Positions 8,968 to 49,162 of a stretch of 64,000 nucleotides of DNA are shown here, piece by piece. A model generated the notes under the pieces. The model was not told where the DNA came from. It saw only the letters and a list, made by a program, of their open reading frames with translations, and did not search any database. Origin of the DNA: Promethearchaeota archaeon. GTDB taxonomy: Archaea; Asgardarchaeota; Lokiarchaeia; Sigyniarchaeales; SOKP01. Each line of letters starts with the position of its first letter. The first letter of the stretch is position 1. The stretch spans positions 1 to 64,000 of the forward strand of contig JAEOTS010000110.1 of NCBI GenBank assembly GCA_016839745.1. Reading direction: 5' to 3'. A program made the translations under genes and the position numbers.

Positions 8968-10113
8968 ATGGCAGAAGAAGAAAGTTTTTTAAACGCGAAA
9001 GCCTTAGTAGTCGACAATGGAACTGGAATTTCCAAAAATGGATTTGCCGGTGAAGACCAACCTCGTTCTGTGTTTCCAACTCTTATAGGTTATCCCAAAT
9101 ACGAATCGATAATGACCGATGTAGAACATTACACTCGTGAATACTACATAGGAGAGGAAGCTATGCAACTTAAAGGTGTTCTAAAGTTAATGTTTCCCGT
9201 AGAACATGGCATTATCGAAGATTGGACTGCTATGGAAAAGATTTGGCATTATACATTTTATACTGATTTAAGAATCGATCCTAGCGAACATCCAGTCCTT
9301 CTAACTGAAGCCCCATTGAACCCAAGACCAAACAGAGAGAAAATGGCAGAGATAATGTTTGAAACATTCAATGTTCCAGCCCTTTATGTTGCAATGCAGG
9401 CTGTCTTGTCTCTTTATGCCTCTGGGCGAACGACGGGATGCGTAATAGACATTGGAGATGGAGTTTCTCACGTAGTGCCCATTTTCGAAGGTTTCGCTTT
9501 AAGTCATGCTATCCAAAGAATCGATCTTGCTGGCCGTGATATCACAACCTACTTACAAAGATTACTCCGTCAAAAGGGATACTCATTTACAACTTCTGCA
9601 GAGAAAGAAATTGTTAGAGATATCAAGGAAAAACTCTGCTATGTAGCAATAGACCCAGAAAAAGAGATGATGCTCTCTAAAAAAGTTGCTGGGATGGAAA
9701 AAAGCTACATGCTTCCCGACGGAGAGACAATTAATGTAGGTGTTGAAAGATTTTTAGCACCCGAATGCTTCTTCAATCCATCTGTAATCGGGAAAGAATT
9801 AGAACCTCTCGATGATGTAATAGTCGGTGCTATTTCAGAATGTGATGTCGACCTTCGTAGAGACCTTTATGGTAATATTGTGCTTTCTGGTGGCTCAACA
9901 ATGTTCCCTGGAATTAAAGAACGCTTAACGAAGGAAATCAAAGAACAAATTCCAGAGTCAGTTGATGTAAAGATTATAGCTCCTCCAGAACGTATGTATT
10001 CCGTATGGATTGGTGGTTCTATCTTAAGTTCCCTGAAAACTTTCCACAGAATGTGGGTTACAAGGCGGGAATACAAGGAAATGGGACCTCAAGTTATACA
10101 TCGTTGCTTTTAA
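8968..10113 (+). CDS. Actin (Lokiactin-type Asgard actin)
   Basis: [68 protein letters not shown]-terminal IHRCF; very close to eukaryotic actin. Confidence 0.97.
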
Positions 10114-11418: not shown

Positions 11419-12699
11419 ATGCCAAGAAGAGAAATTGATAAGACTCGTTTTACGCCAGATTTTAACCATATGTTAAATATTGTTATTTTGAATAGCTTAG
11501 GGTTTTTTTTTATTGGTTTTTTAGTCCCAATAATTGCCCGATATAATATGATCGCATCTGCAATACAAATTAGTTTGATCGTTTCCTTTCAAGTATTAGG
11601 TCGAGCTGTTAGTGGTACTATCACAGGATTTTTAACTGATCGAGCTACATCAAGGAAAATACTCGTTTTAATCGGATCAATCGGGAGAGGAACCTCATAT
11701 TTCATAATTTATACCGCTATAGTTTTGAACTATTTACTACTGCTTGGAATAGGAACATTTACTTTAGGTTTTATGGCGGGTGTGTTTTGGGTTCCGTTTA
11801 ATACACTAATTGCAGAAAAATCCAATAAAGATAATCGTTCTGAAGCTTACGGAAAAAGAAATTCTGCAAATGCTATAGGTCAAATGATTGGAGGTGTTAT
11901 AGGTTTTCTTCTTCTAATGCTACTTGAATACTTCACTGTTAATCCTTTCCTTTTATATGCTAGTATCCCAATCTTTGGTATTGCTAACTTCTATGCGGGT
12001 TTTAAGTTCAATCGGGAGGTAGATGAATCAATTAAATTTGCCAATCCTTCAGATCATCTCTTTAATCCTCAAAATAATGAAAATAACACTGACAAAACAA
12101 AATTTGTAGGTCCCATCATATTTGGATCAATTTTCCTAATGATAGTGTTACTTCTAAGTAATATTAACGGTTCAATCGCAAAACCTTTTTTGAATATTTA
12201 TGTTATTGAAACAATTGAAAGTGACATCCAATTAGTCACATGGGCATATCTACCCGCGGGAGTAGTAGCAACACTGTTAGCTCCAAAATTGGGAGTAATT
12301 GTAGATAAATTACGACCTGCTATAGGTATAACAATTACAAGCTCACTGGGTGCATTGGTCACGTGGTTATTAATAAATTCGGCCAATATTTGGGTTTTTT
12401 CTTTTCTTTTATTAATCGATCTCACCATTATGATTGGATCAGGATTAATTTTTCAGAATTTGCTGAGTAGGATATCATTGAAAAATCGTGGCAAAATTAT
12501 AGGCTCAGGTGAATTCTTTCAATTTCTTGGAAGTTTTATTGGCCCAATTCTAGGAGGAGTAGTATGGGATTTTATCGACCCAAGTTACCCTTTTATTATA
12601 TCAATCTTCGTCGAACTATCGCTTATACCACTTTACTTGGTCGTTGTATATTATTTAATACCCCATCTAGCTGAAACTTTTGCGATAAAAAAGAAATAA
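11419..12699 (+). CDS. MFS transporter
   Basis: ~12 hydrophobic segments; GFLTDR..R motif A; NRGKIIG and GPILGG. Confidence 0.9.
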   Translation: MPRREIDKTRFTPDFNHMLNIVILNSLGFFFIGFLVPIIARYNMIASAIQISLIVSFQVLGRAVSGTITGFLTDRATSRKILVLIGSIGRGTSYFIIYTAIVLNYLLLLGIGTFTLGFMAGVFWVPFNTLIAEKSNKDNRSEAYGKRNSANAIGQMIGGVIGFLLLMLLEYFTVNPFLLYASIPIFGIANFYAGFKFNREVDESIKFANPSDHLFNPQNNENNTDKTKFVGPIIFGSIFLMIVLLLSNINGSIAKPFLNIYVIETIESDIQLVTWAYLPAGVVATLLAPKLGVIVDKLRPAIGITITSSLGALVTWLLINSANIWVFSFLLLIDLTIMIGSGLIFQNLLSRISLKNRGKIIGSGEFFQFLGSFIGPILGGVVWDFIDPSYPFIISIFVELSLIPLYLVVVYYLIPHLAETFAIKKK

Positions 12700-12721
12700 G
12701 AAAAAATCTAAAAAAGTCAGA

Positions 12722-13609
12722 TTAATGCTCTTTAGGCATTTGTTTTAATTCTGCAAGAGAGAAGACTGGTCCATCGATGCAAACATATTTATCACCAATA
12801 TTACATCTTCCACACTTTCCAATACCACATTTCATTCTCATCTCTAATGAATTAAGAATTTGTTCGTCCTTCCAATTCAACTTTTCTAATTCGTTTTGAG
12901 CTGTTTTAATCATAATTGGAGGACCGCACACAACCGCTACTGCATTATCAGATGATGGGGCAACCTCTTTAACCACTGCTGCAACAAAACCCACCTTCCG
13001 CGTCCAATCTTCTTCTTCGCGATCAATGGTCAAAACCACATCAATATCGTCTCGTTTTTCCCATTCTTCTAAGACATCGCGATATAACACTTCTCCAGAA
13101 TTTCGATTTCCATAAATTACCGTTATATTTCCGTAATCCTTCCTATGTTTCTCGTCTAGAACATACAAAATTAAAGAACGCAAAGTTGAAAACGCAAAAC
13201 CTCCACCAATCACAACGATGTTTTTTCCTTTTAGCTCTTCCATTGGCCAACCGTTCCCTAACGGACCTCTTACGCCAATAGTGTCTCCAATATCGCTATT
13301 ATGAAACGAAGAAGTAACCGTTCCCATTTTTTTAATCGTGAATTTGATAGTCCCTTCTTCGGTCGGAGACGAAGCTATTCCGATCGGGCATTCCCCCTTT
13401 CCGATAAAACTTATTTCAGCATATTGGCCAGGAATATAATTAAACTTCTTATAATCTTCTTCTTTTATAAATTCTAATTCGAAAGTTTTTATGTCGTTAA
13501 CCTCATTTTCTGATATTATTGACTTTATTTTTGTAAGCATTGGTATATAAGGATTAGGCACTAACTTTCTCACCCTCTTCTTTTTCTTCAATTTCGAGAA
13601 TTTTATCAA
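12722..13609 (-). CDS. flxA: FlxA/HydG/AsrB-like FAD/NAD(P)-binding oxidoreductase with 2Fe-2S (true start probably ~13561-13573)
   Basis: PGQY, RGPLGNG, GGGFAF, CGPPIM, MKCGIGKCGRC...VCIDGPVF. Confidence 0.85.
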   Translation of the reverse strand: MIKFSKLKKKKRVRKLVPNPYIPMLTKIKSIISENEVNDIKTFELEFIKEEDYKKFNYIPGQYAEISFIGKGECPIGIASSPTEEGTIKFTIKKMGTVTSSFHNSDIGDTIGVRGPLGNGWPMEELKGKNIVVIGGGFAFSTLRSLILYVLDEKHRKDYGNITVIYGNRNSGEVLYRDVLEEWEKRDDIDVVLTIDREEEDWTRKVGFVAAVVKEVAPSSDNAVAVVCGPPIMIKTAQNELEKLNWKDEQILNSLEMRMKCGIGKCGRCNIGDKYVCIDGPVFSLAELKQMPKEH

Positions 13610-14615
13610 TTATCAATCTGAGTTCGTTATTAACGGGGCACGCGATAATGCATCTTCCGCACCCTACACACCCTAAACAATCGTAATTTGACGGATAATA
13701 GCTAAATTTGTGCATTATTCGATTTCTACACCTCTGTATTTTTTCCGGGCGTGGATTGTGACCGCTCGTTTCAAGCGTGTAAAGGCAAGACTGGCAGGTG
13801 TCCCAGATTCTTATTCGCCTACCTCGGTTATTATATTCGTCGTTTTCGTCGATAACGTCAAAACAGGTACATGTGGGACAAAGGAACGTACACGAGCTAC
13901 ATCCGATACAGCTTTCGCTAATTTCTTGCCAGACGGGATGCTCGAAGTTTTCGTCTAACACTTTTGTAACTAAATCGAAATTGAATTTTGTCGTAAACGA
14001 ATCCTCCGCTTGCTTTGCTAACTCTTTGGATTTATCAATGTCCGCCTTTTTCGCGACAGTAAGCCAGGATAATTTTTTTACGAGGTTCTTGCCTTTTTCG
14101 CTTATGGCTTCAACTAAATAGTTATCTCCTAAGTCAGATAGGAATACATCTGTGCTTTCTTTTTGGAAAGGATGACCGCCAACAGACGTACAGAAGCACG
14201 ATTGCCTTGGATTATTACACCCTATGCCGACAATTGTCGCGTTTTCCCGTTTTTTTAGAAACACATCGTCTTGGAAGTCACCTGAGGCAAAAAAATCCTC
14301 TAATAGTTTAAAACTATACGCATCGCAAGGTCTAACTCCGAAAATTAAAATTTTATCCTCTAAATCTTTTCTCTCTTCAATTATGACGTCTTTCCCTTCG
14401 TATCTATACTCAAAAATAGTTTCTTTTTGAGGAAACAGTACGTCTTTTGGGGGAACCTTTGAGTTCAAGAAATCTAATTCAATCTCTTCCGAATTTGAAA
14501 TCTTCTTAAAAGATATATTGCCCTTTACTTTAGTAGGAGCGTAGAACTTGTATTCTTTTACAAGTTCGTTATAGAGCTTACTAATTTCGGTTTTTTTTAA
14601 TATTTTTTCTTCCAT
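13554..14615 (-). CDS. flxB: FlxB/AsrA/HydB-like 4Fe-4S protein
   Basis: GVRPCD, CFCTSVG, CIGCSSCTFLCPTCTCF, RIWDTC, CVGCGRCIIACP. Confidence 0.85.
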   Translation of the reverse strand: MEEKILKKTEISKLYNELVKEYKFYAPTKVKGNISFKKISNSEEIELDFLNSKVPPKDVLFPQKETIFEYRYEGKDVIIEERKDLEDKILIFGVRPCDAYSFKLLEDFFASGDFQDDVFLKKRENATIVGIGCNNPRQSCFCTSVGGHPFQKESTDVFLSDLGDNYLVEAISEKGKNLVKKLSWLTVAKKADIDKSKELAKQAEDSFTTKFNFDLVTKVLDENFEHPVWQEISESCIGCSSCTFLCPTCTCFDVIDENDEYNNRGRRIRIWDTCQSCLYTLETSGHNPRPEKIQRCRNRIMHKFSYYPSNYDCLGCVGCGRCIIACPVNNELRLIIDKILEIEEKEEGEKVSA

Positions 14616-14631
14616 ATTATAACCACTTTAG

Positions 14632-15663
14632 TTAATCCTCTTCTAGCATAAATTCTTCTGCATCTTCCATTTTGAAATCTACCATTGGTGGTAAAACATC
14701 TGGGTCGAGACCAGAAGTAAAATCAAATCTTTCCTTTACAATCTTTTCTAATTTTCTGTTTATGAGGTTTAGATCGATTCCCATAGGACACACTAACGAG
14801 CACGCACCACAGGCTACACACCTACCCGCCATGTGCATCGCGCGGATTAAATGATACACTATAATGTCTGGTAAATCCGTTGTCTTCCCAAACCAGATTG
14901 GTTTGTTCTGATCGACGAAACAGAGATTACAATAACACATAGGGCACGCTTCTCTACACGCGTAACACCTCGTACACACGCTTAAAGCGTCTGTAATATA
15001 TTCCCATTTTTCTTCGGGAGTTTTCGATTCGAACTCTTCAATATCGGTAAACTCGTCCACAATATGTGAATACTCTTCGCATTCGCCAACGCACAAATCA
15101 GGATACTTAGATACTATAGGAGGTTTTCTAATTTTACATCCTTTGCATAATTCATTCATGTTTTCATCGAATGGAAACTCCTTTTCAAAATCTTTTCCCT
15201 TAACGATAATGTTGCTACCCGATACGGAGACTTCAAGTATTTCCTTTTCACCGATTTCCATCTCTATCCGTTGCCGGTTAACAACTCCGTTACACGGAAT
15301 TCCAATAATCGTTATTTCGTCTAAATTAATCTTGTTTTCTGAGGCTAAATGAATTAGCGCTCTTCCAACGCACCCTTTAGAAACAACGCCAACTTTTAAG
15401 TTACCCTTTTCGGGATCCACGAACTTTGGTACCCGAGGAACAAGATATTTGGCTAAATTTACGTAGCACTTATTGTTCCATAATAACTTATCTACTTCTT
15501 CCTCTTTATCTATGATAATTGGTTGCGTAAGCAAGGGTAACGATCCTTTCTCGTAGCCAATAATCACGTCTACCTTCTTTTCTTTAAGCAAGCCCCTTGC
15601 GATTTCTCTCAGGTTATTTTCTATATCTTTATTTTCGGTTTCAAGTCCCACGATCATCACCAT
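14632..15663 (-). CDS. flxC: FlxC/FdhB-like 4Fe-4S dicluster protein
   Basis: CTRCYACREACPMCYC and RAMHMAGRCVACGACSLVCP; position in flxDCBA order. Confidence 0.75.
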   Translation of the reverse strand: MVMIVGLETENKDIENNLREIARGLLKEKKVDVIIGYEKGSLPLLTQPIIIDKEEEVDKLLWNNKCYVNLAKYLVPRVPKFVDPEKGNLKVGVVSKGCVGRALIHLASENKINLDEITIIGIPCNGVVNRQRIEMEIGEKEILEVSVSGSNIIVKGKDFEKEFPFDENMNELCKGCKIRKPPIVSKYPDLCVGECEEYSHIVDEFTDIEEFESKTPEEKWEYITDALSVCTRCYACREACPMCYCNLCFVDQNKPIWFGKTTDLPDIIVYHLIRAMHMAGRCVACGACSLVCPMGIDLNLINRKLEKIVKERFDFTSGLDPDVLPPMVDFKMEDAEEFMLEED

Positions 15664-16112
15664 TTTTTTTCAAATTTTTTGTTTGGACCGAGTTTTTTTA
15701 CAATTTCGGTCGCTTTTCGAATTAACACGGCAAATCGCTCGCCCTCTGCGGCAGAAGCCCACATAAAGTTAACTCTTCCGGGTTCTATGCCGAAGAATTC
15801 TAATAGCTCTTTTAATATCGCAAACCTTCTTCGGGCAACCAAATTTCCGCTAATATAGTGGCAGTCACCAGGGTGGCATCCAGAAACAACGACCCCGTCC
15901 CAGCCGTCGGTTAAACTTTTTATAATAAAGTAAGCGTTAATTCTTCCAGAACAAGGAACTCTTACGATTCTAATGTTTGGGGGATATTGAATCCTACTCA
16001 CGCCCGCTAAATCAGCTCCGGCGTAAGAACACCAATTACACAGAAAAGCGATAATTTTTGGCTCCCATTCTTTACTTTCAGATTGTTTTGTTTCAACAAT
16101 AGGTTCAGTCAT
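15657..16112 (-). CDS. mvhD: MvhD/FlxD iron-sulfur subunit
   Basis: FLCNWCSYAGADLAG, RVPCSGR, GCHPGDCHY, WASAAEG. Confidence 0.92.
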   Translation of the reverse strand: MTEPIVETKQSESKEWEPKIIAFLCNWCSYAGADLAGVSRIQYPPNIRIVRVPCSGRINAYFIIKSLTDGWDGVVVSGCHPGDCHYISGNLVARRRFAILKELLEFFGIEPGRVNFMWASAAEGERFAVLIRKATEIVKKLGPNKKFEKKW

Positions 16113-16114
16113 TT

Positions 16115-19100
16115 TTATAACCTCCCTGTTATCATAGCATATATTTGTTCAGATGAAAAACCTGCTACATCTATTGCAGCACATCTACAATTTCCTGAGC
16201 AGGCCCCACACCCTTTACATAGAGCGGAATTAATAACAGCAACGGTACCAAATCTTCTATCTTCAATTAATTCTATCGCATTATAAGCACAGTTGTCTAT
16301 GCACATTCCACAACCACTACATCTAGCAGGATCAACAGTAGCTATTTTACCTTCAGCTTCTATTTCGTCTTTTGAAAGAATTGTACACGCTCTTGAAACC
16401 GCAGCATTTGCTTGAGAAATAGAATCCTCAATTGTTTTTGGGCAGTGGGCTAAACCTGCGACGAAGACTCCTTCCGTAGCAAAATCAACTGGTCGAAGCT
16501 TTACATGAGCTTCTAAGAAAAAGTTATCGTCGTTTAAAGGTACTTTTAAAAGTTTGCCCATTTCCTCGTTTTCTTCTTTTTGGGCTACTATTCCAACACT
16601 TAATACTAGTAAATCTGAGTTTATTTGAATTTTGTCTTTTCTAGGGGAAACAACAGTCACTCTTAATTTCGAGCCTTCTGGCACAATTTCTGGAGGATTA
16701 TTTTCATCGTAACGAATAAAAACAATTCCTTCTTCACGTGCCATTCTATAGTATTTTTCTTTAAATCCATAAGTTCTAATATCTCTAAATAAAATCACAA
16801 TCTCAGTGGAAGGACTCTTCCTCTTAGCAACTATTGCATTTTTTATTGCTTCCGCGCAACACATCTTACTACAATAAGGATGTTCTTCGTTTCGAGATCC
16901 TACGCACTGAATCATAACAATTGATTTTTTATCTTTAATATCATCAGTAGTGTTTATATACTTCTCAAATTCAGATTGAGTAATCACTTTATCGTTTTTA
17001 CCATATAAATATTCATTCGGTTCATATTCTTTAGCACCTGTTGCTACAACTACAACCCCATGTTCAAATTCTACTTTATTCTTTTCTGAACCAAAAGTTA
17101 CTGATGATTTGAAATTTCCAATATAACCATCAATGGTTTCAATTTCCGCCTCTGTGAAAACATGTATATTGGCGTGTGTTTTTACTTTTTCTATCAATTC
17201 TGTTAGGAAATCTTGCACATTTCCACCTTCAAGCGTAGTATAAATGTTTCGGGCAAAACCTCCTAATTCTTTTTCCTTTTCGATTAAAAAAGTCTCATAA
17301 TTTTGATTCGCAAAATTCAGAGCTGCAACCATCCCAGTAATGCCACCTCCTATAACCAGAGGTTTAGGAGTTACTCCCAATTTTATTCTCTCTAATGGCT
17401 GTATGTTTCTCGCTTTATTTACTGCCATTCTTACGAGGTCCTTTGCTTTATCTGTAGCCTCCTCTGGTTGGTTCATATGAACCCAACTACATTGATCGCG
17501 TATGTTTGCCATTTGAAATAAGTATCTATTTAACCCTGCTTCTCTAATAGTTTCTTGAAACAATGGTTCGTGAGTTCTGGGGGTACAAGACGCTACAATA
17601 ACTCTATTAAGGGTATAATCCTTAATCATATCCTTGATTATCGTTTGAGTGTCAGCTGAGCAAGTATATAAGTTCTGATCCGCTAAAACTACATTTGGAA
17701 GTGAACTTGCATATTTTACTACTTCAGGAACATCAACATATCCTCCAATATTTACACCGCAATGACAGATAAATACTCCAATCCTTGGTGGTTGACCCGC
17801 GACAAATATTTCTGGTGGTAATGTTTTCTCTGTAATTAATGTATCTCTCTGATCGTATAACAGCGTATTTACGCAACCTGCAGCTGCGCTTGCTTGAGTG
17901 ACTGTCTCAGGAATATCTTTCGGTGAGGAAAAAGCACCACAAACAAAAACACCTGGTTTAGTTGTCTGAACAGGGTTAAAAATATCCGTTTTAGCGAAAT
18001 TAAATTCGTTCAATTCAATTCCAAATTTATTGGCTAAATATTTAGCATCATCTGGAGGGTTTAAGCCAACCGAAAGTACTACCATCTCAAAATTTTCTTC
18101 AATAATTTCCCCGTTTTCTGTTTCGTATTTTATTATCAGATCTTTGGTATCTGGATCCTCTTTAACTGAAGAAATCCGACTTCGAATATAGCGTACACCA
18201 TATTCTTCTTGTGCTCGAATGATATATTTATCAAAGTCTTTTCCGTACGCCCTTATATCCATGCTGAAAATTGTTGGTCTTATTTGATGCATATGTTCGT
18301 GAGCGATTACTGCTTCTTTTGCCGTATACATACAACACACTGAAGAACAATAAGGTTGACCATTTCCCGTAAAATCACGAGATCCAATACACTGTAGAAA
18401 CGCGACTTTTTCTGGGATATCTCCATCAGACGGTCGTAATACTTTTCCTGCATAAGGGCCACTCGCGCTTAATATTCGCTCGAATTCAATACTTGTGACA
18501 ACATTTTTATACTTCCCATATCCATACATATTACCCTCAGGAGGGATATATTCATCGAAACCAGGGGCTAATACAATTCCACCTACCTTTATCTCAACTA
18601 TCTCATCCTCTAAATCGTATTCTACAGCATTTGCTTTACACACACCCCTACAAATGCCACACCCTATACAATAATCTTTATTTATCGCGTAAACAAGAGG
18701 GACTGCTTGTGGATACTTAACAGATGTTGCTGCAAATTTAGATAAATTCTCGTTGAAAACATCAATTGCCTCTACTGGACAAGCTCGACCACATACACCA
18801 CATCCTGTGCATTTATCCGTATTCACATATAATGTTTTCTTTAATAATTTAACTGTAAAATTACCTGCTTCTCCTGAAACATCCAAAATTTTGCAATTTA
18901 TACTCAGATCAATATTATGATGCCGACCGGTCTCTACAAGCTTAGGACTTACAATGCACATAGCACAATCGTTAGTTGGGAAAGTTTTATCCAGCTGAGC
19001 CATCACGCCACCTATGCTCGTTGTTGATTCAAGTAAATAAACTTTAAATCCAGCATCACCTAAATCTAGAGCCGTTTGAGAACCTCCAATTCCTGCTCCT

Positions 19101-19129
19101 ACTACTAATACTGCTCCTACTTTTTCCAT
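16115..19129 (-). CDS. hdrA: Large HdrA-family flavoprotein (two HdrA FAD modules fused, 1004 aa)
   Basis: GAGIGG, LDKTFPTNDC, QCIGSR...YCSSVCC, VASCTPRTHE, GGGITG, QCVGSR...YCSKMCC, EAHVKLRP, ferredoxin motifs. Confidence 0.92.
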   Translation of the reverse strand: MEKVGAVLVVGAGIGGSQTALDLGDAGFKVYLLESTTSIGGVMAQLDKTFPTNDCAMCIVSPKLVETGRHHNIDLSINCKILDVSGEAGNFTVKLLKKTLYVNTDKCTGCGVCGRACPVEAIDVFNENLSKFAATSVKYPQAVPLVYAINKDYCIGCGICRGVCKANAVEYDLEDEIVEIKVGGIVLAPGFDEYIPPEGNMYGYGKYKNVVTSIEFERILSASGPYAGKVLRPSDGDIPEKVAFLQCIGSRDFTGNGQPYCSSVCCMYTAKEAVIAHEHMHQIRPTIFSMDIRAYGKDFDKYIIRAQEEYGVRYIRSRISSVKEDPDTKDLIIKYETENGEIIEENFEMVVLSVGLNPPDDAKYLANKFGIELNEFNFAKTDIFNPVQTTKPGVFVCGAFSSPKDIPETVTQASAAAGCVNTLLYDQRDTLITEKTLPPEIFVAGQPPRIGVFICHCGVNIGGYVDVPEVVKYASSLPNVVLADQNLYTCSADTQTIIKDMIKDYTLNRVIVASCTPRTHEPLFQETIREAGLNRYLFQMANIRDQCSWVHMNQPEEATDKAKDLVRMAVNKARNIQPLERIKLGVTPKPLVIGGGITGMVAALNFANQNYETFLIEKEKELGGFARNIYTTLEGGNVQDFLTELIEKVKTHANIHVFTEAEIETIDGYIGNFKSSVTFGSEKNKVEFEHGVVVVATGAKEYEPNEYLYGKNDKVITQSEFEKYINTTDDIKDKKSIVMIQCVGSRNEEHPYCSKMCCAEAIKNAIVAKRKSPSTEIVILFRDIRTYGFKEKYYRMAREEGIVFIRYDENNPPEIVPEGSKLRVTVVSPRKDKIQINSDLLVLSVGIVAQKEENEEMGKLLKVPLNDDNFFLEAHVKLRPVDFATEGVFVAGLAHCPKTIEDSISQANAAVSRACTILSKDEIEAEGKIATVDPARCSGCGMCIDNCAYNAIELIEDRRFGTVAVINSALCKGCGACSGNCRCAAIDVAGFSSEQIYAMITGRL

Positions 19130-19140
19130 TTTTTTTACCT

Positions 19141-19902
19141 CTATATTCTCATATATAACGGAGTATTTCCGTCAATACTTTGATAATCTATTTCTCCTCT
19201 ACTCTTTAAAGTTAGCATGTTTTCTAAAATTTCACTGGGATCCAGTTTTAGCTCAGTAGCTAAATCTTTAACTGAAAGGACTTTATTACTTAATGAAAGT
19301 AAGATTCTTTGCCTAACAAATTCATCGTGAATTGCTTCATCAAAAATAGCGTTAAATTCATCCACAGGGACACGCTCTCCATATTCATTTTCAACTTCAG
19401 TAATCTTCCTCTGCCGTCCTACTAATGCTCTAATCCTATCGCTTGAAATAGCATTTTCCATAGCTTTTAAATTATTGAATAGCCCTTGATCGATGTTTTC
19501 TCCGCTAAGCGGAGATGGTCCTTGTTCTCGAATTGCTTCAATAAACTCAGTAACTACTTTAGCAAATCTTGCTCCTTCAGAAGCAGAAACCCAATCCAAT
19601 CGTATTCTCTTATCAAAATCGACCATTCTAAGAAATTTTTGTACCATGTTAAACTTCTTTTCAGCTTCGTAATTTCCCTCTAAATAATGGCAATCTCCAG
19701 GATGACAACCTAATACAAATACACCATCTATTCCTGTTAAGAGAGCCTTAAAAATGAATACAGGATCAACTCTGCCACTGCACATAACCCGAATAACTCT
19801 CATATTGGGGGGATACTGTATTCTACTAACTCCTGCTAAGTCTGCTCCCGCATAGGAACACCAGTTACACAAAAAACCCAATATTTTTGGTTCAAACGTC
19901 AT
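19141..19902 (-). CDS. MvhD-domain protein with C-terminal winged-helix extension
   Basis: FLCNWCSYAGAD, RVMCSGR, GCHPGDCHY; C-terminal LSVKDLATELKLDPSEILENMLTLKSRGEI. Confidence 0.85.
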   Translation of the reverse strand: MTFEPKILGFLCNWCSYAGADLAGVSRIQYPPNMRVIRVMCSGRVDPVFIFKALLTGIDGVFVLGCHPGDCHYLEGNYEAEKKFNMVQKFLRMVDFDKRIRLDWVSASEGARFAKVVTEFIEAIREQGPSPLSGENIDQGLFNNLKAMENAISSDRIRALVGRQRKITEVENEYGERVPVDEFNAIFDEAIHDEFVRQRILLSLSNKVLSVKDLATELKLDPSEILENMLTLKSRGEIDYQSIDGNTPLYMRI

Positions 19903-21587
19903 TATACTACTTTACCTCCATAAGCGTATATTTCAGAAAGAATTTGTTCATCTGTAAAATGTCTTATAATAATTGCATGGTTGGTACATGTAGCACCACA
20001 CAAACCACACCCTTTGCACAATACTTGAGTTATTTCTATCTCATCTTTATCATTTTTAATAATAGCGTTGTATGGACAAACTTTTATACAGACCTCACAA
20101 CCGGTGCATAAACTTTTGTTATATTCAGGTAAAAATGATGTAGCACCCTCAACTTCTATCGTATCGTGAGATATTATCCTACTAGCTCTTGCTGCTGCCG
20201 CATAACCTTGAGAAATGGACTCTGTAATATCAACAGGCCATTTTGCAGAGCCACAGACATAAACACCGTCAGTAGCGAAATCCATTGGCCGCAATTTTAC
20301 GTGTGCTTCTAAAAAGAAACCATTTTCCTCTAATGGAACTTTTATCATTTGTGCTAGAGCTTTATTATCATTATTTGAAACTAACGGGGTGGAAAGAACA
20401 CAAAGATCATAAGGGATAATCATATCCTCTCCTAGATATTCGTTGTGCACTTTTATCTGCTTTTCTTCAACAATAGGTAGTTTTTCAGGGGAATATTCAA
20501 TAAATATAACCCCTTCTTCTCGAGCTCTTCTATAGTAATCCTCGTAATGAGTGCCTGGTGTATAAAAATCTCTAAAAAGAATCGTAACATTTGTTTCAGG
20601 ATTAGTTTCCTTTATAATAAGAGAATTTTTTAAAGCTGTCATACAACATACATTTGAACAATAAGCCCTCTCTTCATTACGAGATCCAACGCATTGTATC
20701 ATAACAACATCTTTAGGTTGGATTTCATTATTCTGTAATTTACTCTCCAGTTCATGTTGAGTAATTCTTATATTACCGTCATAACCGAAATATCCACTTG
20801 GTGTCAAAAGTGAGGCTCCAACAGCCACAACAATAACACCAATAGTTAAATCGATATTAGTACCATTTTCCTCTACTCTCACTTCATAGTTACCTATAAA
20901 ACCTTCAATATTTTTTACTTGTGATGAGGTGTGGACTTTCAGGTTTTTATTACTTTCGACGTTTTTCTTAAGATTCTCTAATAAAATCTGGGCATCTTGG
21001 TCATTTGGGAAGAGTTTATACAATGTCTTAAGTCTACCACCTAACTCCGTTTCTCTTTCAATTAAGTGCGTCTCAAATCCTTGATTTGCCAAACTAAGTG
21101 CAGCTGTCATCCCTGAAACACCTCCACCAATTATTAAAGCAGTAGGAGTTGCATCCACGGTAATATTTTCAAGTGCCTCGAGCTTAGATGCTTTTGCTAC
21201 ACCCATACGAATTAAGTCTTTAGCCTTGTCAAATGCTTCCTCTGGAAATTTCTGATGGCACCAAGTGTTTTGATCTCGAATGTTCACAAAATTAAAGAGG
21301 TACTCATTTACGCCCTCTTCTTCAACGCAATGACGAAATAGGGGTTCGTGGGTTCTTGGAGTGCATGATGCTACAATTACTCTATTCAAATTATGGTCTT
21401 TAATTCCATTTTTGATTTGTGCTAATCCTGTTTCTGAGCATGTGTAGAGATTATCCTCAGTAAATACTACATTTGGAAGGTTTTTAGCATACTCTGCGAG
21501 AGCTTTAACATCTATGAGTCCTCCAATATTGCTTCCACAAGAACAAACAAAAACTCCAATTCTAGGTTCTTCTTCTTTTTCATTCAT
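19902..21587 (-). CDS. hdrA: HdrA-family protein (matches C-terminal half of the 1004-aa HdrA)
   Basis: RIGVFVCSCG, VASCTPRTHE, GGGVSG, QCVGSR..YCSNVCC, EAHVKLRP, two 4Fe-4S motifs. Confidence 0.9.
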   Translation of the reverse strand: MNEKEEEPRIGVFVCSCGSNIGGLIDVKALAEYAKNLPNVVFTEDNLYTCSETGLAQIKNGIKDHNLNRVIVASCTPRTHEPLFRHCVEEEGVNEYLFNFVNIRDQNTWCHQKFPEEAFDKAKDLIRMGVAKASKLEALENITVDATPTALIIGGGVSGMTAALSLANQGFETHLIERETELGGRLKTLYKLFPNDQDAQILLENLKKNVESNKNLKVHTSSQVKNIEGFIGNYEVRVEENGTNIDLTIGVIVVAVGASLLTPSGYFGYDGNIRITQHELESKLQNNEIQPKDVVMIQCVGSRNEERAYCSNVCCMTALKNSLIIKETNPETNVTILFRDFYTPGTHYEDYYRRAREEGVIFIEYSPEKLPIVEEKQIKVHNEYLGEDMIIPYDLCVLSTPLVSNNDNKALAQMIKVPLEENGFFLEAHVKLRPMDFATDGVYVCGSAKWPVDITESISQGYAAAARASRIISHDTIEVEGATSFLPEYNKSLCTGCEVCIKVCPYNAIIKNDKDEIEITQVLCKGCGLCGATCTNHAIIIRHFTDEQILSEIYAYGGKVV

Positions 21588-21593
21588 TGTTTT

Positions 21594-22907
21594 TTATCCT
21601 CCTTTTATTACTTCTGCTGCTCTTGCTGCTGCACCACTTGCTTCAGCAACAGAACGAGGTATATCCATCGGTTCCCGAGCGCAACCGCATGTGTAAATCC
21701 CTTCTACACTCGTTTCAACAGGCAAAAATGGATGTGTTTTCACAAAATCATAATGATCTAAATCAATACCTAAAACATCTGCTAAATTATTAATCCCTCT
21801 CGATGGGATAATACATGTTGCTAAAACAGCTAAATCTACAGTTAATTGTTTTATTTCAGATGTTTCGTAATCTTCATATGTGATTATTGGGTTATCATTC
21901 TCATCAACTTCTAGATGAGAAATTTTACTTTTTATATATTTGATATTATACTCTTCAGCGCCCCTTTGTAGAAACTTTTGAAATCCCTTGCCTCCAGCTC
22001 TCATATCAATATAAAATACAAAACATTCCAACTCATTGTCGTGTTCATATGCGATCATAGCTTCTTTTGTAGTATACATACAACAAACAGAGGAACAATA
22101 CATTTGACCTTTCTGAGAGCGTGAATCAATACATTGAAGAAAAGCAACTTTTTTAGGATGTTTTCCGTCAGTTAATCTACTTAAATGGCCAGCCTGTGGA
22201 CCTGAAGCACAAATTAATCTCTCAAGTTCCATTGCTGTGACTACATTACCATACTTTTGATAACCATAGATATTTAAAGTATGTATATCTTCTGCTAGAT
22301 CCAAACCAGTTGCAACAATAATTGCTCCAACATTATCTAAACTAAGTACTGTATCTTTTTGCGTGAAGTCAATCGCATCCGCACCACAATTTTGATAGCA
22401 TAACCCACAAATTTCGTAATTTAAATATAAACATTTACTCGGATCAATACGATATGTTGCAGGCACTGCAGCTGGAAAGGCAATTTGTGCTGCTGATTGA
22501 GTAGCTAAATTTGCATCAAAAAAGTTAGTAATTCCTCTAACAGGGCATATAGCTCCACAATCTCCGCAATTGGTACATACGCCCTCTTTAATATAACGGG
22601 CATGTTTTAACACATCGACAGAAAAATTACCTACTGAACCTCCTATTTTTTGGATCTCTGAAAGAGTATGCAGTGTTATATTAGGATGTCTATAACACTC
22701 TGAAAGTTTAGGAGCGAGGATACAAATTGAACAATCAAGTGTAGGGAATGTCTTGTCTAATTGAGCCATTCTACCTCCAATACAAGGCTGTTTCTCAACT
22801 AAATGTACTTGTATTCCCATATCCCCTAAATCTAAGGCAGATTGAATGCCAGCAATTCCTGCTCCAATAATTACAACTGATTTTGAATTTTCTCCCAAAT
22901 TTTTCAC
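21594..22907 (-). CDS. hdrA: HdrA-family protein (matches N-terminal half of the 1004-aa HdrA)
   Basis: GAGIAG, LDKTFPTLDCSIC, CTNCGDC, QCIDSR..YCSSVCC, PMDIPRSV. Confidence 0.9.
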   Translation of the reverse strand: MKNLGENSKSVVIIGAGIAGIQSALDLGDMGIQVHLVEKQPCIGGRMAQLDKTFPTLDCSICILAPKLSECYRHPNITLHTLSEIQKIGGSVGNFSVDVLKHARYIKEGVCTNCGDCGAICPVRGITNFFDANLATQSAAQIAFPAAVPATYRIDPSKCLYLNYEICGLCYQNCGADAIDFTQKDTVLSLDNVGAIIVATGLDLAEDIHTLNIYGYQKYGNVVTAMELERLICASGPQAGHLSRLTDGKHPKKVAFLQCIDSRSQKGQMYCSSVCCMYTTKEAMIAYEHDNELECFVFYIDMRAGGKGFQKFLQRGAEEYNIKYIKSKISHLEVDENDNPIITYEDYETSEIKQLTVDLAVLATCIIPSRGINNLADVLGIDLDHYDFVKTHPFLPVETSVEGIYTCGCAREPMDIPRSVAEASGAAARAAEVIKGG

Positions 22908-22911
22908 CTAT

Positions 22912-24033
22912 TTAAGATTTTTTTATTTTATTATTTGTCATTCTCCTAAGCAAGTCAATTTTACTTGCCTTCCATTCCGTAATTGTAGACTTCTTAGGAG
23001 TAAATCTATCAATATAACCTGAAATCAGTGCATTTTTCATAAGTTCTTCGCCTTTTTCCGTGCGAATTACAACCATTGAATTTTGCTGAACTGCTCCGGA
23101 GCCACCAAAACTGATATCAGCAAATCTACTTGTAAACTCATCACAATCGTGACAATGATTCCTTACAGCTTCATCAAACTTATGAAGTTCAACTTCATAA
23201 ACTTTATTTTCTTTATTAGTTATAAAGAAATTCTTTTTAATGTTCATTTTAGTTATGTTCGCAGGATCCTCGTTAGTCTCTTTTTTCACTAACTGGAATA
23301 ATTTTTCATAATCAAAGTTTTCCATACAGAACAAACCAAAGACATATTTAATAACATGAGCAGGGCTTATGTTTAGAAGTTGCATTTTTCGGACTGCTCT
23401 ACACTGACAAGGAGTTCCTACAAAAGCCATACGAATTTGATTTATATCATAAATTTGATGATGATTTTCAATGATTTCTTGAGCAATGTTATAAAGCTCT
23501 GTTAGAGGTAAAATATTTGAGGATATAGAATATCGAGTCCCCGAAGACTTCAATAGCTCCTCTTTGTTGTATATGATTTTTGGAATAGGTTGTAGTTTCT
23601 CGTCGTATTCAGACACTATCGCAGCATCAATTTTGTTTTTATCAAATAAGTAAGTTAGCAGTGTAGTTACTAAGCCCCCATCTTGCCCCATTTCTTTAAT
23701 TTTATCATCTGTTGTTTTAGCAGCAACAATATCTTGAATATATCCCATCTCATCTTTAATTCGATAATCCTCATTCAAGTGTTTCATCAACGGTTCTGTT
23801 TGAGGGCAGATATAGTAGCACAATCCGCACTCTTTACAATTGTCAACATTCGCATCTGAAATGTATTGGGGTGTATATCTTTCCATTTTAATAACATCAA
23901 ACTTTTGGCTTGAGCAGTAAGCAACGCACGCCCCACAAGCGCAACATTTGTTAGTTTTAATTATTTCTTCTTGAAGGTCCTTAAATATTTTAACATCCTT
24001 TAATACAGTTTTTTTGGGTAAAACATCTGCCAT
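22912..24033 (-). CDS. Coenzyme F420 hydrogenase/dehydrogenase beta subunit (FrhB/FdhB/FpoF family)
   Basis: N-terminal CCACGAC and CKECGLC..ICP; GQDGG.VT, VGTPCQ, GLFCMENF, CHDC, ADISFG. Confidence 0.88.
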   Translation of the reverse strand: MADVLPKKTVLKDVKIFKDLQEEIIKTNKCCACGACVAYCSSQKFDVIKMERYTPQYISDANVDNCKECGLCYYICPQTEPLMKHLNEDYRIKDEMGYIQDIVAAKTTDDKIKEMGQDGGLVTTLLTYLFDKNKIDAAIVSEYDEKLQPIPKIIYNKEELLKSSGTRYSISSNILPLTELYNIAQEIIENHHQIYDINQIRMAFVGTPCQCRAVRKMQLLNISPAHVIKYVFGLFCMENFDYEKLFQLVKKETNEDPANITKMNIKKNFFITNKENKVYEVELHKFDEAVRNHCHDCDEFTSRFADISFGGSGAVQQNSMVVIRTEKGEELMKNALISGYIDRFTPKKSTITEWKASKIDLLRRMTNNKIKKS

Positions 24034-44832: not shown

Positions 44833-45132
44833 ATGGTTAATGCTAAAAAAGATTATCAAAAAATCCTCGGATCAGTGCAAAAACCTGTTAAGGGTGAAGC
44901 TGGAAAAACAGGAACATGGAGTCCTAAGAAACCTATAATAGATTTAGAAAAATGCATTCCCGTAAAATCTGGAAAACCAAGTTGTTTTAATTGTTGGTTA
45001 TATTGCCCAGAAGCAGTAGTAACAAGGACAATACCTCCAGAAATAGATTTAGAATATTGTAAGGGATGCGGAATCTGCCAGGAAGAGTGTCCCGTGAAAG
45101 CAATTTCAATGGAAGAGGTGAAGATTGAGTGA
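44833..45132 (+). CDS. porD: 2-oxoacid:ferredoxin oxidoreductase delta subunit
   Basis: KTGTW, CFNCWLYCPE, YCKGCGICQEECP. Confidence 0.9.
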   Translation: MVNAKKDYQKILGSVQKPVKGEAGKTGTWSPKKPIIDLEKCIPVKSGKPSCFNCWLYCPEAVVTRTIPPEIDLEYCKGCGICQEECPVKAISMEEVKIE

Positions 45133-46424
45133 CAGTTACAGAAAAGAAACCGGAAATTAGTGATAAAAAAACAAAAATTTTAACTGGAAATCACGCGGCA
45201 GCGCATGCTCTCAGACAAGCAAGAGTTGGGGTTATAGCTGCTTATCCGATAACTCCACAGAGTCCTGTTGTTGAGAAAATCGCAGAGTTTGTGTCTAAAG
45301 GTGAATTAAAAGCCCGATTTGTGAAAGTAGAATCAGAGCATTCCGCACTTGCCGTATGTTGTGCAGCTTCCGCTACGGGTTCTAGAGTTGGTACAGCAAC
45401 TTCCTCCCATGGTCTAATGTTGATGTATGAAATGCTGCCATGGGCTTCTGGAAATAGATTGCCGATAATAATCAACTTAGCAACCAGAGCTACTGGTGCT
45501 CCTTGGTCAGTTTGGACAGATCATCAGGACTTTATAACAATACGCGATGTTGGCTGGATTCAGATGTTTTGCATGGATAATCAAGAGATTTACGATACCA
45601 ACCTACAAGCATTCAAAATAGCAGAAGATTCAAGGGTTTTTCTTCCAGCTATAGTTGCTTATGATGGTTACATCTTATCTCATACGATGATGCCAGTTTC
45701 TATAGAAAATCAAGATGACATTGATAGTTTTTTACCTCCATTAGAACATCATTACAATCTTTCTGATGTTTCTGTCGTAAAAGGGATTGATCCAGTGACT
45801 ACTCCCCATTTAAGAGATAGAGGGTCTGAAGGTACCGCTCCAGGATATTTTGAATACCGATACGCAATGCAAAAAGCTCTTGAAAATTCAATTGATATCA
45901 TAATGGAAGTTCACGATGAATTTTCAGAAAAATTTGGACGATCTTATGGAAATGGTATTTATAAAACGTACTTAACCGAAGACGCTGACATATTAATATT
46001 TGCAATGGGATCCGTCGCTTCTCAAGCGCGGAATGTTATCGGTCAGCTTCGGAAAGAAGGATTAAAGGTTGGTTTAGTGAGTCTGAAGTTATTTAGACCT
46101 TTCCCCGCTTCACAGTTACGAGAATTGTTTAAAGATGCAAAACTCGTGGTAGTATTTGATAGAGATATTGGATATGGTTATGAAGGGGTCTTATCGTACG
46201 AATTAAAAGCAGCTTTATACGGTTTAAAACAAGCTCCGTTTATTAAAGGTTTTATTGTAGGATTAGGCGGTAGAGATGTAACCGATCAGCATATAACCAA
46301 AGGAGTGACCAGAGCAATAAAAGAATCAGAAAAAGGAATTATATCTCATGAAACAGATTTTATTGGTTTAAAATTAGATGATTTAGGTGATTATGACGAG
46401 AAAGATTATTTTAAGGGAGGATGA
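45129..46424 (+). CDS. porA: 2-oxoacid:ferredoxin oxidoreductase alpha subunit
   Basis: AYPITPQS, VESEHSA, TATSS.GL, FRPFP, GLGGRD. Confidence 0.92.
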   Translation: MTVTEKKPEISDKKTKILTGNHAAAHALRQARVGVIAAYPITPQSPVVEKIAEFVSKGELKARFVKVESEHSALAVCCAASATGSRVGTATSSHGLMLMYEMLPWASGNRLPIIINLATRATGAPWSVWTDHQDFITIRDVGWIQMFCMDNQEIYDTNLQAFKIAEDSRVFLPAIVAYDGYILSHTMMPVSIENQDDIDSFLPPLEHHYNLSDVSVVKGIDPVTTPHLRDRGSEGTAPGYFEYRYAMQKALENSIDIIMEVHDEFSEKFGRSYGNGIYKTYLTEDADILIFAMGSVASQARNVIGQLRKEGLKVGLVSLKLFRPFPASQLRELFKDAKLVVVFDRDIGYGYEGVLSYELKAALYGLKQAPFIKGFIVGLGGRDVTDQHITKGVTRAIKESEKGIISHETDFIGLKLDDLGDYDEKDYFKGG

Positions 46425-47329
46425 AAAAAATGGTTAAACTTATGGAAATTCCGGAAGAAGAATACATATTTCCAGGCACTAGAGCGTGTGCGGGATGTTC
46501 AATGGCATTGATATATAGAATTGCTCTTAAGGCTTTAGGACCAAAAACGATAATTACTGTTCCGGCATCGTGCTTAACCGTTCTACACGGAATGCAAGGA
46601 TTTTGCACTACTAAAGTTTCGGTACTTCACACACCGTTTGCTACTACAGGTGCTTCAGCGTCGGGAATCGTTGCTTCACTTGAAGACAAAGGTTTAGCTG
46701 ACGAAGTTAATGTGCTTGCATTCGCAGGAGATGGAGGTACCGTAGATATTGGAATTCAGAGTTTAAGTGGAGCTGTTGAAAGAGGTACTAATTTTATTTA
46801 CGCTTGTTACGATAATGAAGCATACATGAACACGGGGGTTCAAAGGAGTGGAAGCACGCCACCAGGTGCTTATAGTACTACTACTCCTAATGGTAAAAAA
46901 GGATATAAAAAAAATATGGCGAAAATTCTAGAGGCTCACGGTATTCCATATGTTGCTACAGCTATTTCTTCCTACCCTCTTGATTTATTCGAGAAATTTA
47001 AAAACGCTCAAAAAATCAATGGACCAAAATATATTCATATTCTTGCTCCATGCCCACCCGGTTGGGGGTATAATCCTAAAGATTCAATTGAGATTGGGAG
47101 ATTAGCAGTTCAGACGGGTTTCTGGCCATTATACGAAGTGATTGAAGGTAAATTCATTTTATCAAAGGATAGTCAAAGATTTTTAGATCCCTCAAAACGC
47201 AAACCTATCAGCGAATATCTAAACATCCAAAAAAGATTTAATAGTATTTCTAATGAAGATGTTAAGATACATGAAGACTATATAGAAGAACAATGGAAAC
47301 AGATTAAAAAAAGAATTGAGGACGAATAA
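46421..47329 (+). CDS. porB: 2-oxoacid:ferredoxin oxidoreductase beta subunit
   Basis: ACAGC, GDGG..DIG, YDNEAYMNTGVQRS, PCPPGW. Confidence 0.92.
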   Translation: MKKMVKLMEIPEEEYIFPGTRACAGCSMALIYRIALKALGPKTIITVPASCLTVLHGMQGFCTTKVSVLHTPFATTGASASGIVASLEDKGLADEVNVLAFAGDGGTVDIGIQSLSGAVERGTNFIYACYDNEAYMNTGVQRSGSTPPGAYSTTTPNGKKGYKKNMAKILEAHGIPYVATAISSYPLDLFEKFKNAQKINGPKYIHILAPCPPGWGYNPKDSIEIGRLAVQTGFWPLYEVIEGKFILSKDSQRFLDPSKRKPISEYLNIQKRFNSISNEDVKIHEDYIEEQWKQIKKRIEDE

Positions 47330-47450
47330 TATTAATTCTTCGCATAAGTTGTGAAATTCCCATTATCATCTTTTTCTGTTTTCTCTAACAAAGTAGTTTA
47401 GATATAGAAAAAAATATAAATTAATTAGAGTTAAAAATACTTGAATCTCT

Positions 47451-48233
47451 ATGCTAAAAACATACATTTTCGACGAAGCTAACAAAAAATGGATTGAAGA
47501 AGATAAAAGTTTACTGTACCACGATCTGTGCGCTATTTTGGATGAAGAGCGCAATATCATTTACCTATGGAATGGACCAAAAAGCTCTCAAGAAAAATTG
47601 AAAAAGGGATATGGACTGTTAGAGTCCCTAATGTCCTACTACCCAACTATAAATTTTCAACTGTTAGTATTAAAGAAAAAAGTACCAAGTCATATTCAAG
47701 AAAGGATAGATATAATGTTATATGAAATAAAGCATGAAGATAAAAAAGATTATTATAAGTTTTCCCGATTTATTTCAATAAGGTTATATCTAATTTTTTT
47801 GTTAGTTTCGATAATTTTACCTATCTTTTCTTTTGTAAACCTTATTTCTTCATTATCGTGGATAAAAATTGACGCAAATTTTGAAATTGGAGCTGAAGCA
47901 TATAACAATTGGTTATTAATTTCTTATATATTAATAGTTATATCTTTAATTTTCTTTAGTATCATTATACTTATAGGAATTATTGAAATTGAATACCAAG
48001 TTATAGTTTTTTCCTTGTTAGGGGTATTAGTTTGCGGTGGTTTAATTGCTTATTTACAGCAAGGGATATTTTTGTTTTTGTTTCAAGAGGGATCTTCTTC
48101 AATCTATTATATCAGACAAAATGATATAATTGAGTTTCTGATCGTAGTTGCATTGGGAATTATGGTTTTTGAAATACCAAATGTGATAAAACTTATCTCA
48201 TCCATAAAGATTTACAGAAAATTCGTTTTTTAA
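47451..48233 (+). CDS. Gelsolin-like domain fused to four transmembrane helices
   Basis: SLLYHDLCAILDEERNIIYLWNGPKSS.EK matches the gelsolin-repeat consensus (L...D..ILD...IY.W.G..S); four hydrophobic segments at ~aa 112-135, 154-178, 183-202, 226-245. Confidence 0.7.
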   Translation: MLKTYIFDEANKKWIEEDKSLLYHDLCAILDEERNIIYLWNGPKSSQEKLKKGYGLLESLMSYYPTINFQLLVLKKKVPSHIQERIDIMLYEIKHEDKKDYYKFSRFISIRLYLIFLLVSIILPIFSFVNLISSLSWIKIDANFEIGAEAYNNWLLISYILIVISLIFFSIIILIGIIEIEYQVIVFSLLGVLVCGGLIAYLQQGIFLFLFQEGSSSIYYIRQNDIIEFLIVVALGIMVFEIPNVIKLISSIKIYRKFVF

Positions 48234-48280
48234 AAACCTTTATTAAATTACAAATATAAGAAGATTTTCAAGATATCAAT

Positions 48281-49162
48281 ATGGCTGAAGCAGCACACAT
48301 TCTTCCAGATATGGAAAAAGAAGACTTAAGAATTTTAATGGCAATTGAAATAGGAATGAAAAGATCTGAATATGTTACAGTAAATAATATAAGATTTTAT
48401 TCCAGATATCCAATGGAAGAAACCCTGTTTCGTCTAAAAAAAGTACATAAATGGAATTTAACAATAAGAGACTCTTCCAAAAGCGAGGTGGCTTATACAC
48501 TCAATTCAATTGGTTATGATGTGCTAGGGCTTCACACTTTGGTTGAGAGGGAAATAATAGATCAATTAGGACCATTAATCGGTAAAGGGAAAGAATCAGA
48601 TGTTTATGGGTGTATGGATGACAAAAAGAACATATTCGCTTTAAAAATATATAGGATAGGTAGAACCAGTTTTAAGAATATCAAAAAGCTAAGAAGTTTT
48701 CAAGGGGAACGAAAGCACATATCTTGGTTGTATGTAAATAGACTTGCCGCTAAAAAAGAATTTGACGCTTTAAGTAAAATCTACGAACTTAAATTAGATA
48801 CCCCTAAACCAATAGGATTTAATCGACATATAATAGTAATGTCATACTTAAGAGGAAAAGAATTAGCGTTTTATCAAAATCTTAAAAATCCAAGTAAGAT
48901 TTTTAACAAGATCATCAAACAACTTAAAGTAATTTATCAAAAAGCGAACATGATCCATGGAGATCTAGGAGAATTCAATATAATAGTAGATAATAAAGGA
49001 AATATATTAATAATCGATTGGCTACAATGGATTCCGTCAGATCACCCAAACGCAAGATCAATTTTAGAAAGAGATATTGAAAATGTGTGTAACTTCTTTC
49101 AAAAGAAATACCATATAGAAAGCAACCCTGTAGAGATTATTCAATCATTTAAAAAAAAGTAA
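48281..49162 (+). CDS. rio2: RIO2 atypical Ser/Thr kinase
   Basis: N-terminal wHTH (GYDVLGL), GKGKESDVY, GRTSF, IHGDLGEFNI, IIDW.Q. Confidence 0.92.
   Translation: MAEAAHILPDMEKEDLRILMAIEIGMKRSEYVTVNNIRFYSRYPMEETLFRLKKVHKWNLTIRDSSKSEVAYTLNSIGYDVLGLHTLVEREIIDQLGPLIGKGKESDVYGCMDDKKNIFALKIYRIGRTSFKNIKKLRSFQGERKHISWLYVNRLAAKKEFDALSKIYELKLDTPKPIGFNRHIIVMSYLRGKELAFYQNLKNPSKIFNKIIKQLKVIYQKANMIHGDLGEFNIIVDNKGNILIIDWLQWIPSDHPNARSILERDIENVCNFFQKKYHIESNPVEIIQSFKKK

Follow-up and report, generated by a model that had tools for sequence, protein, structure and literature searches.

Cultured Lokiarchaeia form dynamic, actin-filled protrusions and crawl (PMC9834061, PMC13716822), and a gene at 47451-48233 on the plus strand of the window (the whole stretch of 64,000 nucleotides analysed here) raises the question of whether a gelsolin-type protein built into the membrane could connect that membrane to Lokiactin. 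The initial annotation had described the gene product as a gelsolin domain fused to a four-helix membrane anchor and a candidate actin-membrane linker, on the premise that the Asgard gelsolins known so far are soluble and that no membrane tether for Lokiactin has been identified. Both premises agree with the literature open to full-text search, in which the Asgard gelsolins are ProGel, 1DGelX and 2DGel proteins only, no membrane-embedded gelsolin is described and no Lokiactin-membrane tether is named. The authors of one preprint consider their own co-immunoprecipitation to be probably biased against membrane proteins (10.1101/2025.11.30.690169).

The open reading frame starts with ATG and runs for 260 codons plus a stop, encoding a gelsolin-homology (GH) domain, a linker and a module of four transmembrane (TM) helices. 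More than 170 homologues of 255-262 aa match the window protein from end to end, and a six-frame search recovers an intact frame of the gene in 126 of 400 genomes of the phylum. Median dN/dS (Nei-Gojobori, 36 orthologue pairs) is 0.13 over residues 1-95 and 0.19 over 105-260, a constraint on the GH domain no weaker than that on the membrane part; the gene is real and is evolving under purifying selection. The idea of a chance open frame, or of a mis-assembled chimera between a gelsolin gene and a membrane-protein gene, has as its sole point in favour a Pfam score below threshold (given below), and is refuted by the recurrence of the same intact architecture in those 126 genomes, closed ones included, by the synteny kept among loci and by dN/dS values well below 1 in both halves, so that we regard it as virtually impossible. 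The read sets covering window positions 46421-49162 are marine sediment and soil metagenome DNA, with no RNA set among them. By eye, an A/T-rich stretch with AAAAATATAAAT is present at 47405-47450, roughly 30-40 nt ahead of the start codon, and a similar stretch precedes the downstream gene for a Rio2-type kinase; the two may be separate archaeal TATA-type promoters.

Residues 1-95 (47451-47735, +) form a gelsolin-homology fold, as had been proposed from the letters alone. Every element of the gelsolin-repeat motif quoted in the initial annotation is there (L21/L22, D25, I29-L30-D31 and I37-Y38-L39-W40-N41-G42-P43-K44-S45-S46-Q47-E48-K49). Within it, the 'WxG' signature W40-N41-G42 (47568-47576, +) makes up a D..WxG pattern with D31; D31, W40 and G42 are invariant in an alignment of 29 sequences, and across the order G42 is invariant and the W of WxG becomes Y in 3 of 37 sequences. 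The AF2 model of the protein has a mean pLDDT of 81, with values of 81-89 for residues 1-90, and contains strands at 3-8, 13-16, 26-31 and 36-41, a long helix at 47-62 (47589-47636, +; assigned by DSSP on the model and by comparison with soluble paralogues), a strand at 70-73 and a helix at 80-89. This is the mixed beta-sheet between a long and a shorter helix that characterizes GH domains.

The Pfam model PF00626 falls below its gathering score of 21 bits on this protein, with 17.2 bits for the full sequence and 19.1 bits for aa 1-110 (19.1 bits also in the genome scan). When the profile of the 29-member family is compared with all PDB sequences, 24 of the 27 matches belong to the gelsolin family, led by Thorarchaeota ProGel (7c2f_B, E 4e-4) and followed by villin, gelsolin, CapG and adseverin; the three exceptions, RbcX chains and one gelsolin row without a passing stretch, have E-values of about 1 or higher. 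ProGel is also the top Foldseek match of the AF2 GH model (7c2f_B, E 1e-5, TM-score on target 0.69, 87 of 88 residues), with more than 30 further matches behind it that are all gelsolin-family domains, and VIA-align superposes the model on ProGel with a Z of 10.3 and an rmsd of 2.6 A over 85 of 88 residues. Alignment of the family by hhalign to soluble Asgard GH domains (nine domains, from seven proteins of the window's own genome and two from related genomes) gives 97.7% probability and an E of 1.7e-12 over 90 columns, gap-free between the WxG motif and the long helix. In the language-model Atlas, residues 1-100 have as their nearest named clusters Asgard gelsolin-type proteins of ~100 aa (score 0.85), which is taken as a lead only.

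ProGel of Thorarchaeota (PDB 7C2F chains B/D; Akil et al. 2020, PMC7444086) resembles the window GH domain in being a single gelsolin/cofilin-type domain of ~90 residues with a D..WxG pattern and without calcium sites, and is its best match by sequence profile, Foldseek and VIA, at an identity of only about 18-20%. ProGel is free and soluble, however, whereas the window protein continues into four TM helices. The repeats of eukaryotic gelsolin, villin, CapG and adseverin (PF00626) have the fold and the WxG core in common with it, and the weak matches to eukaryotic gelsolin-family proteins fall mainly on the third repeat. Those proteins consist of several repeats and are soluble or secreted and calcium-regulated, in contrast to the single repeat, missing type II glutamate and membrane module of the window protein. 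Its overall layout is closest to that of Asgard 1DGelX proteins, which also carry a non-gelsolin C-terminal part behind an N-terminal GH domain, and whose C-terminal domain X is thought to add function (PMC7444086, PMC9433394, bioRxiv 10.1101/2025.11.30.690169). Domain X is described as coiled-coil or disordered and the whole protein as soluble, and domain X has no detectable relation to the four TM helices found here. The fusion of a GH domain with four TM helices is a new architecture of a known domain family.

Behind the GH domain lies a charged, K/R/D-rich linker (aa 96-106; 47736-47768, +) that adjoins the membrane on the predicted cytoplasmic side and is modelled with a pLDDT <50 at residues 97-102. 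The four long hydrophobic helices reported after it in the initial annotation are reproduced by AF2/DSSP at residues 107-136, 148-178, 182-208 and 223-259, with which the hydropathy scan agrees. TM helix 1 (aa 107-136; 47769-47858, +) leads into outer loop 1-2 (aa 137-147; 47859-47891, +), a beta-hairpin by DSSP that is low in K+R and begins with W137, invariant in the 29-sequence alignment. TM helix 2 (aa 148-178; 47892-47984, +) is joined by a short, putatively cytoplasmic turn, E179-I-E181 (47985-47993, +), delimited in the family alignments, to TM helix 3 (aa 182-208; 47994-48074, +), a helix evident from hydropathy, AF2 and conservation. Outer loop 3-4 (aa 209-222; 48075-48116, +) holds the conserved F209 and Q212 and a strand at 218-222, and the last segment (aa 223-260; 48117-48230, +) comprises TM helix 4, with D225 and E241-x-P243-N244, and a basic amphipathic C-terminal end closing on K..YRKFVF. 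The most conserved stretch of the module across the order is TM3 and the loop after it (G197, Y201, G205 and F209), in which Y201 never varies and G197 and G205 hardly do. A separate model of residues 101-260, built on 12 aligned sequences from across the order, is a confident four-helix bundle (pLDDT 88, pTM 0.83), in which the loop 1-2 hairpin pairs with the loop 3-4 strand to give a small sheet on one face.

No N-terminal hydrophobic signal sequence is present in the window protein. Among 88 members, lysines plus arginines number 3.9 per sequence over the 17 positions ahead of TM1 and 6.9 beyond TM4, against 0.7, 0.9 and 0.8 in the three loops. By the positive-inside rule this distribution argues strongly for an N-in/C-in topology, with the GH domain and the C-terminus in the cytoplasm and the small sheet outside, in line with the N-in arrangement of four TM helices that had been suggested for this protein.

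The membrane module occurs only behind a GH-sized N-domain. A TM-only profile run against 1.84 billion representative proteins gives 69 matches; every full-length protein among them is 255-384 aa long and has the match starting between residues 92 and 118, the remainder are fragments, and the most distant matches still keep the GH core pattern. No soluble relatives of the module were found in this search. Pfam has no match for the module, and the only Atlas match is an uncharacterised Promethearchaeota cluster (score 0.85). In Foldseek against the PDB the best E-value is 0.44, with nothing <0.4; this match is a cornichon chain at a TM-score of about 0.5, and connexins lie above an E of 1. A VIA-wide comparison finds generic helical bundles only (designed proteins, chemoreceptor sensor domains, talin/vinculin bundles), an arrangement that is common. 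Claudin/PMP22, connexin and cornichon proteins have four TM helices, both ends in the cytoplasm and short beta structure in the outer loops, as in the window module, but the likeness is one of plan and does not speak for kinship, and neither these families nor tetraspanin or MARVEL give a significant fold or sequence match to the module in Foldseek PDB, Pfam, VIA or Atlas. As the module is both as conserved as the GH domain and private to the family, the term 'mere anchor' may undersell it.

Of particular interest in the GH domain is the exposed face of the long helix, which was compared in 37 membrane-family sequences by anchoring on the W of WxG, in a register that the hhalign alignment bears out. 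In the window protein a hydrophobic stripe of L50, Y54, L57 and L60/M61 faces the core and the rest of the helix is rich in Lys, Glu and Gln; the positions W+13/14, 17, 20 and 24 form such a core stripe in the soluble and the membrane families alike. Elsewhere the two groups differ. In soluble single-domain Asgard GH domains and Thorarchaeota ProGel, W+7 is V or L, W+11 is F or L and W+12 is I or M, whereas in the membrane family W+7 is mostly K/Q, W+11 is K/R/E/N and thus polar in 37 of 37, and W+12 is K/E/Q/R in 34 of 37; W+15 is K/E/G/R there. Conversely, W+10 is K/R and W+14 a small residue in the soluble domains and ProGel, and both are hydrophobic members of the core stripe in the membrane family. 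At the hydrophobic W+7/8 and W+11/12 of ProGel the window protein itself has Q/E and K/K. Plotted on a helical wheel, W+7 and W+11 come out across from the core stripe and share a face with I103 (W+15) of gelsolin G1, one turn earlier, which fits the published shift of ProGel on actin by one helical turn relative to G1 (PMC7444086). This helical geometry, taken with the ProGel shift, suggests that W+7, W+11 and W+12 are the positions that would contact actin.

An exposed hydrophobic contact for the actin cleft, as supplied by I103 in G1 and one turn earlier in ProGel-type domains, was not found on the long helix in the 37 sequences, and the alignment points to a greasy patch replaced by charge throughout the membrane family. 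Since polar or basic residues occupy the putative contact positions in all, or almost all, members, the canonical gelsolin/ProGel grip on the actin cleft is doubtful. The overall reading of the initial annotation is partly supported: it holds for the GH fold, the four TM helices and the N-in/C-in topology, and is weakened at W+7, W+11 and W+12. The acidic residue of the type II calcium site (E97 of G1, equivalent to W+9) is also missing; W+9 is K or R in 28 of the 37 sequences, which makes calcium control unlikely. The 2DGel paralogues of the window's genome have D-E at W+8/9.

Asgard gelsolins with one or two domains bind actin and regulate it in vitro (PMC7444086, PMC9433394), and in L. ossiferum co-precipitation with Lokiactin brings down five GH proteins (PMC13716822). 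The reading of the window protein as an actin tether is plausible but loses strength through the altered helix face, and is put at slightly under an even chance. In this mechanism a ProGel-like single GH domain would sit in the cytoplasm on a linker of ~10 residues, fused to a private bundle of four TM helices with a small beta-sheet on its outer face. The gelsolin-type module would thereby be held at the inner membrane surface, where it could engage Lokiactin as a monomer or at a filament end or side, and this engagement would couple the actin skeleton to the membrane. The interface would be calcium-independent and more electrostatic than the hydrophobic plug of gelsolin G1 and ProGel-type proteins. 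A complex prediction of Lokiactin with aa 1-100 scored 0.00 in both runs, a result that counts neither for nor against binding. A more far-reaching version, in which the protein would be an integral-membrane tether or nucleator that fixes Lokiactin to the protrusion membrane, with a non-canonical, charge-based gelsolin interface and a conserved outer sheet that couples outside events to actin, is unlikely; if true, the outside events would be contact with partners or surfaces, and the protein would represent an archaeal forerunner of transmembrane actin linkage. A conserved membrane-embedded protein with a gelsolin fold is an obvious and directly testable candidate for the link between Lokiactin and the membrane, and antibodies, proteomes and cryo-tomography exist for Ca. 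L. ossiferum.

The same charged helix face that weakens the tether also favours a GH domain that has been repurposed and does not bind actin. Here the four-helix module, as a scaffold, small pore or unit that binds a lipid or ligand, would do the work, and the GH domain would serve it as a cytoplasmic regulatory or docking domain, much like the gelsolin-like domain of Sec23/24, which is not known as an actin binder. The module is highly conserved, with polar or charged residues in or near the bilayer (E179, E181, Q212, D225 and E241), is private to the family and models very confidently alone. A gelsolin-like domain, that of Sec24c, is among the weaker Foldseek matches. The GH long helix (aa 46-59) and the TM2-TM3 turn (aa 178-184) are also anti-correlated in net charge (r = -0.50 in 88 sequences, without correction for phylogeny), a hint that the helix face may dock on the membrane module instead of on actin: members of the window's clade mostly combine a net basic GH helix, reaching +8 over 14 residues, with an acidic turn (E-x-E), and those of the sister clade a basic turn ([ST][KR][KR]) with a neutral or acidic GH helix. 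This pattern is treated as a lead, as it rests essentially on two clades and has counter-examples (L020: helix +5, turn +1). On the other hand, the closest relatives in sequence and fold are all actin-binding gelsolins, and the membrane part lacks the fold of a known channel, transporter or enzyme in Foldseek and VIA. Weighing these points, repurposing of the GH domain is a real possibility but falls well short of probable. Absence of actin binding would make the window protein the first case of an Asgard gelsolin fold taken over for a different role, and would bear on how freely function can be deduced from 'eukaryotic signature' domains.

The basic helix invites one further explanation, that it binds acidic, phosphoinositide-like lipid head groups and marks or organises membrane patches, touching actin only indirectly. 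Eukaryotic gelsolin is regulated by phosphoinositides. Asgard profilin is regulated by them as well (PMC13716822). In most of the window's clade the exposed helix face is strongly basic, and it lies within a short linker of the bilayer. The sister clade, which includes the orthologue in genome G138, has a neutral or acidic helix, which excludes lipid binding by this face as the conserved function, and we give the explanation little credence.

The GH-TM family is confined to one order of Lokiarchaeia. A survey of its architecture across Asgard genomes, of the kind that the initial annotation had pointed to, supports this range: carriers number 110 of 134 genomes in the window's own family, 11 of 14 in one sister family and 3 of 4 in another, and the gene is essentially absent outside the order among the 400 genomes of the phylum. 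Some homologues bear NCBI names (Thor-, Odin-, Hod- and Hermodarchaeota) that would imply a pan-Asgard range, which is outweighed by the genome survey. The gene was found in none of four genomes, 89-100% complete, of genus g6 in the same taxonomic family; its absence from complete genomes there indicates that it is dispensable in that genus. A closed single-contig genome (G138; 6,035,313 bp) encodes an orthologue of 283 aa with the same GH and four-TM plan (G138:C1:2924513-2925364, minus strand). The Pfam Gelsolin model does not match this orthologue even at an E of 1, and domain-based lists of Asgard gelsolins may have missed it for that reason.

In the window's taxonomic family the conserved downstream neighbour is the Rio2-type kinase gene (48281-49162, +; Pfam RIO1 and Rio2_N). 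The order porD-porA-porB, GH-TM, Rio2 kinase and methyltransferase (window 44833-49162), in which porD-porA-porB encode a pyruvate/2-oxoacid:ferredoxin oxidoreductase, is kept across four genera, whose GH-TM proteins share only 34-50% identity with that of the window, and the porDAB - GH-TM - Rio2 order is seen in 16 loci of these genera (L001-L012, L020-L023). The start of Rio2 lies 11 nt past the GH-TM stop codon in one genus, and the genes overlap in L021. Because the neighbours differ in the sister clade, Rio2 and the oxidoreductase were set aside as a functional clue; in that clade the GH-TM gene follows a TFB gene and overlaps by 11 nt a gene for a 1,000-aa Eco57I-like methylase, with a hydrolase gene next after it. 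Neither gene context speaks to actin.

The actin gene named in the initial annotation is a Lokiactin gene (8968-10113, +; Pfam Actin, 443 bits) whose product is the presumed partner of the GH-TM protein, and Lokiactin is 88-100% identical across the order over the aligned full-length copy. The caution that its presence in the window is no evidence was well placed, as the distance between Lokiactin and the GH-TM gene in other genomes varies from 17 kb to about 1 Mb, which rules out linkage. The window's genome (G000) also encodes a second actin, 82% identical to the window Lokiactin, and two actin-related proteins at 39-43% identity, together located on contigs C190:3313-4440, C5:47408-48493 and C93:46658-47602. 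Eight GH-domain genes were found in this genome, only one of which encodes TM helices. A closed 3.7-Mb genome of a sister family has its GH-TM gene (L018:4811-5566, -) 1.3 kb from a divergently oriented gene (L018:6861-8126, +) for a 1DGelX-like protein of 422 aa, in which one GH domain (Pfam, 18.6 bits) is joined to a long Glu/Lys-rich, coiled-coil-like region.

Several members of the family vary beyond TM4. Proteins of the sister clade, to which the G138 orthologue belongs, carry cytoplasmic C-terminal tails of 44-49 aa (L013:5517-5648, L014:5800-5934 and L016:4092-4229, all minus strand; also P0129, P0138, P0163, P0166 and P0170) with an amphipathic [LI]xE[MI]R followed by [SA][KR]P[TS]IL[RQ]DK..V.[LM].EI. 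By eye the tail resembles a WH2 motif (a helix and L[KR]xx); Pfam scans of these tails detected neither WH2 nor another motif, and the window protein is without the tail. Proteins of a more distant clade end in TPxI[VI]DLRK. P0128 (384 aa) has a C-terminal extension of 137 aa beyond TM4 that is Lys/Glu-rich and coiled-coil-like, and L023 has a Lys-rich tail of 67 aa. In another family of the phylum, L019 (G058:C98, minus strand, 1826-2962) retains a GH remnant from the residue equivalent to I37, and its TM1-like segment continues into an EamA-like transporter sequence of roughly ten helices; the first GH strands are not encoded in the upstream frame, and truncation or recombination of the copy, or a chimeric contig, is the probable explanation. 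Elsewhere in the window, the ~12 kb at 12001-24000 have a G+C of 0.34-0.38, compared with about 0.30 in the remainder, and a strongly negative GC skew, down to -0.27, which may point to large genes on the minus strand or to a region of another kind, for instance rRNA.
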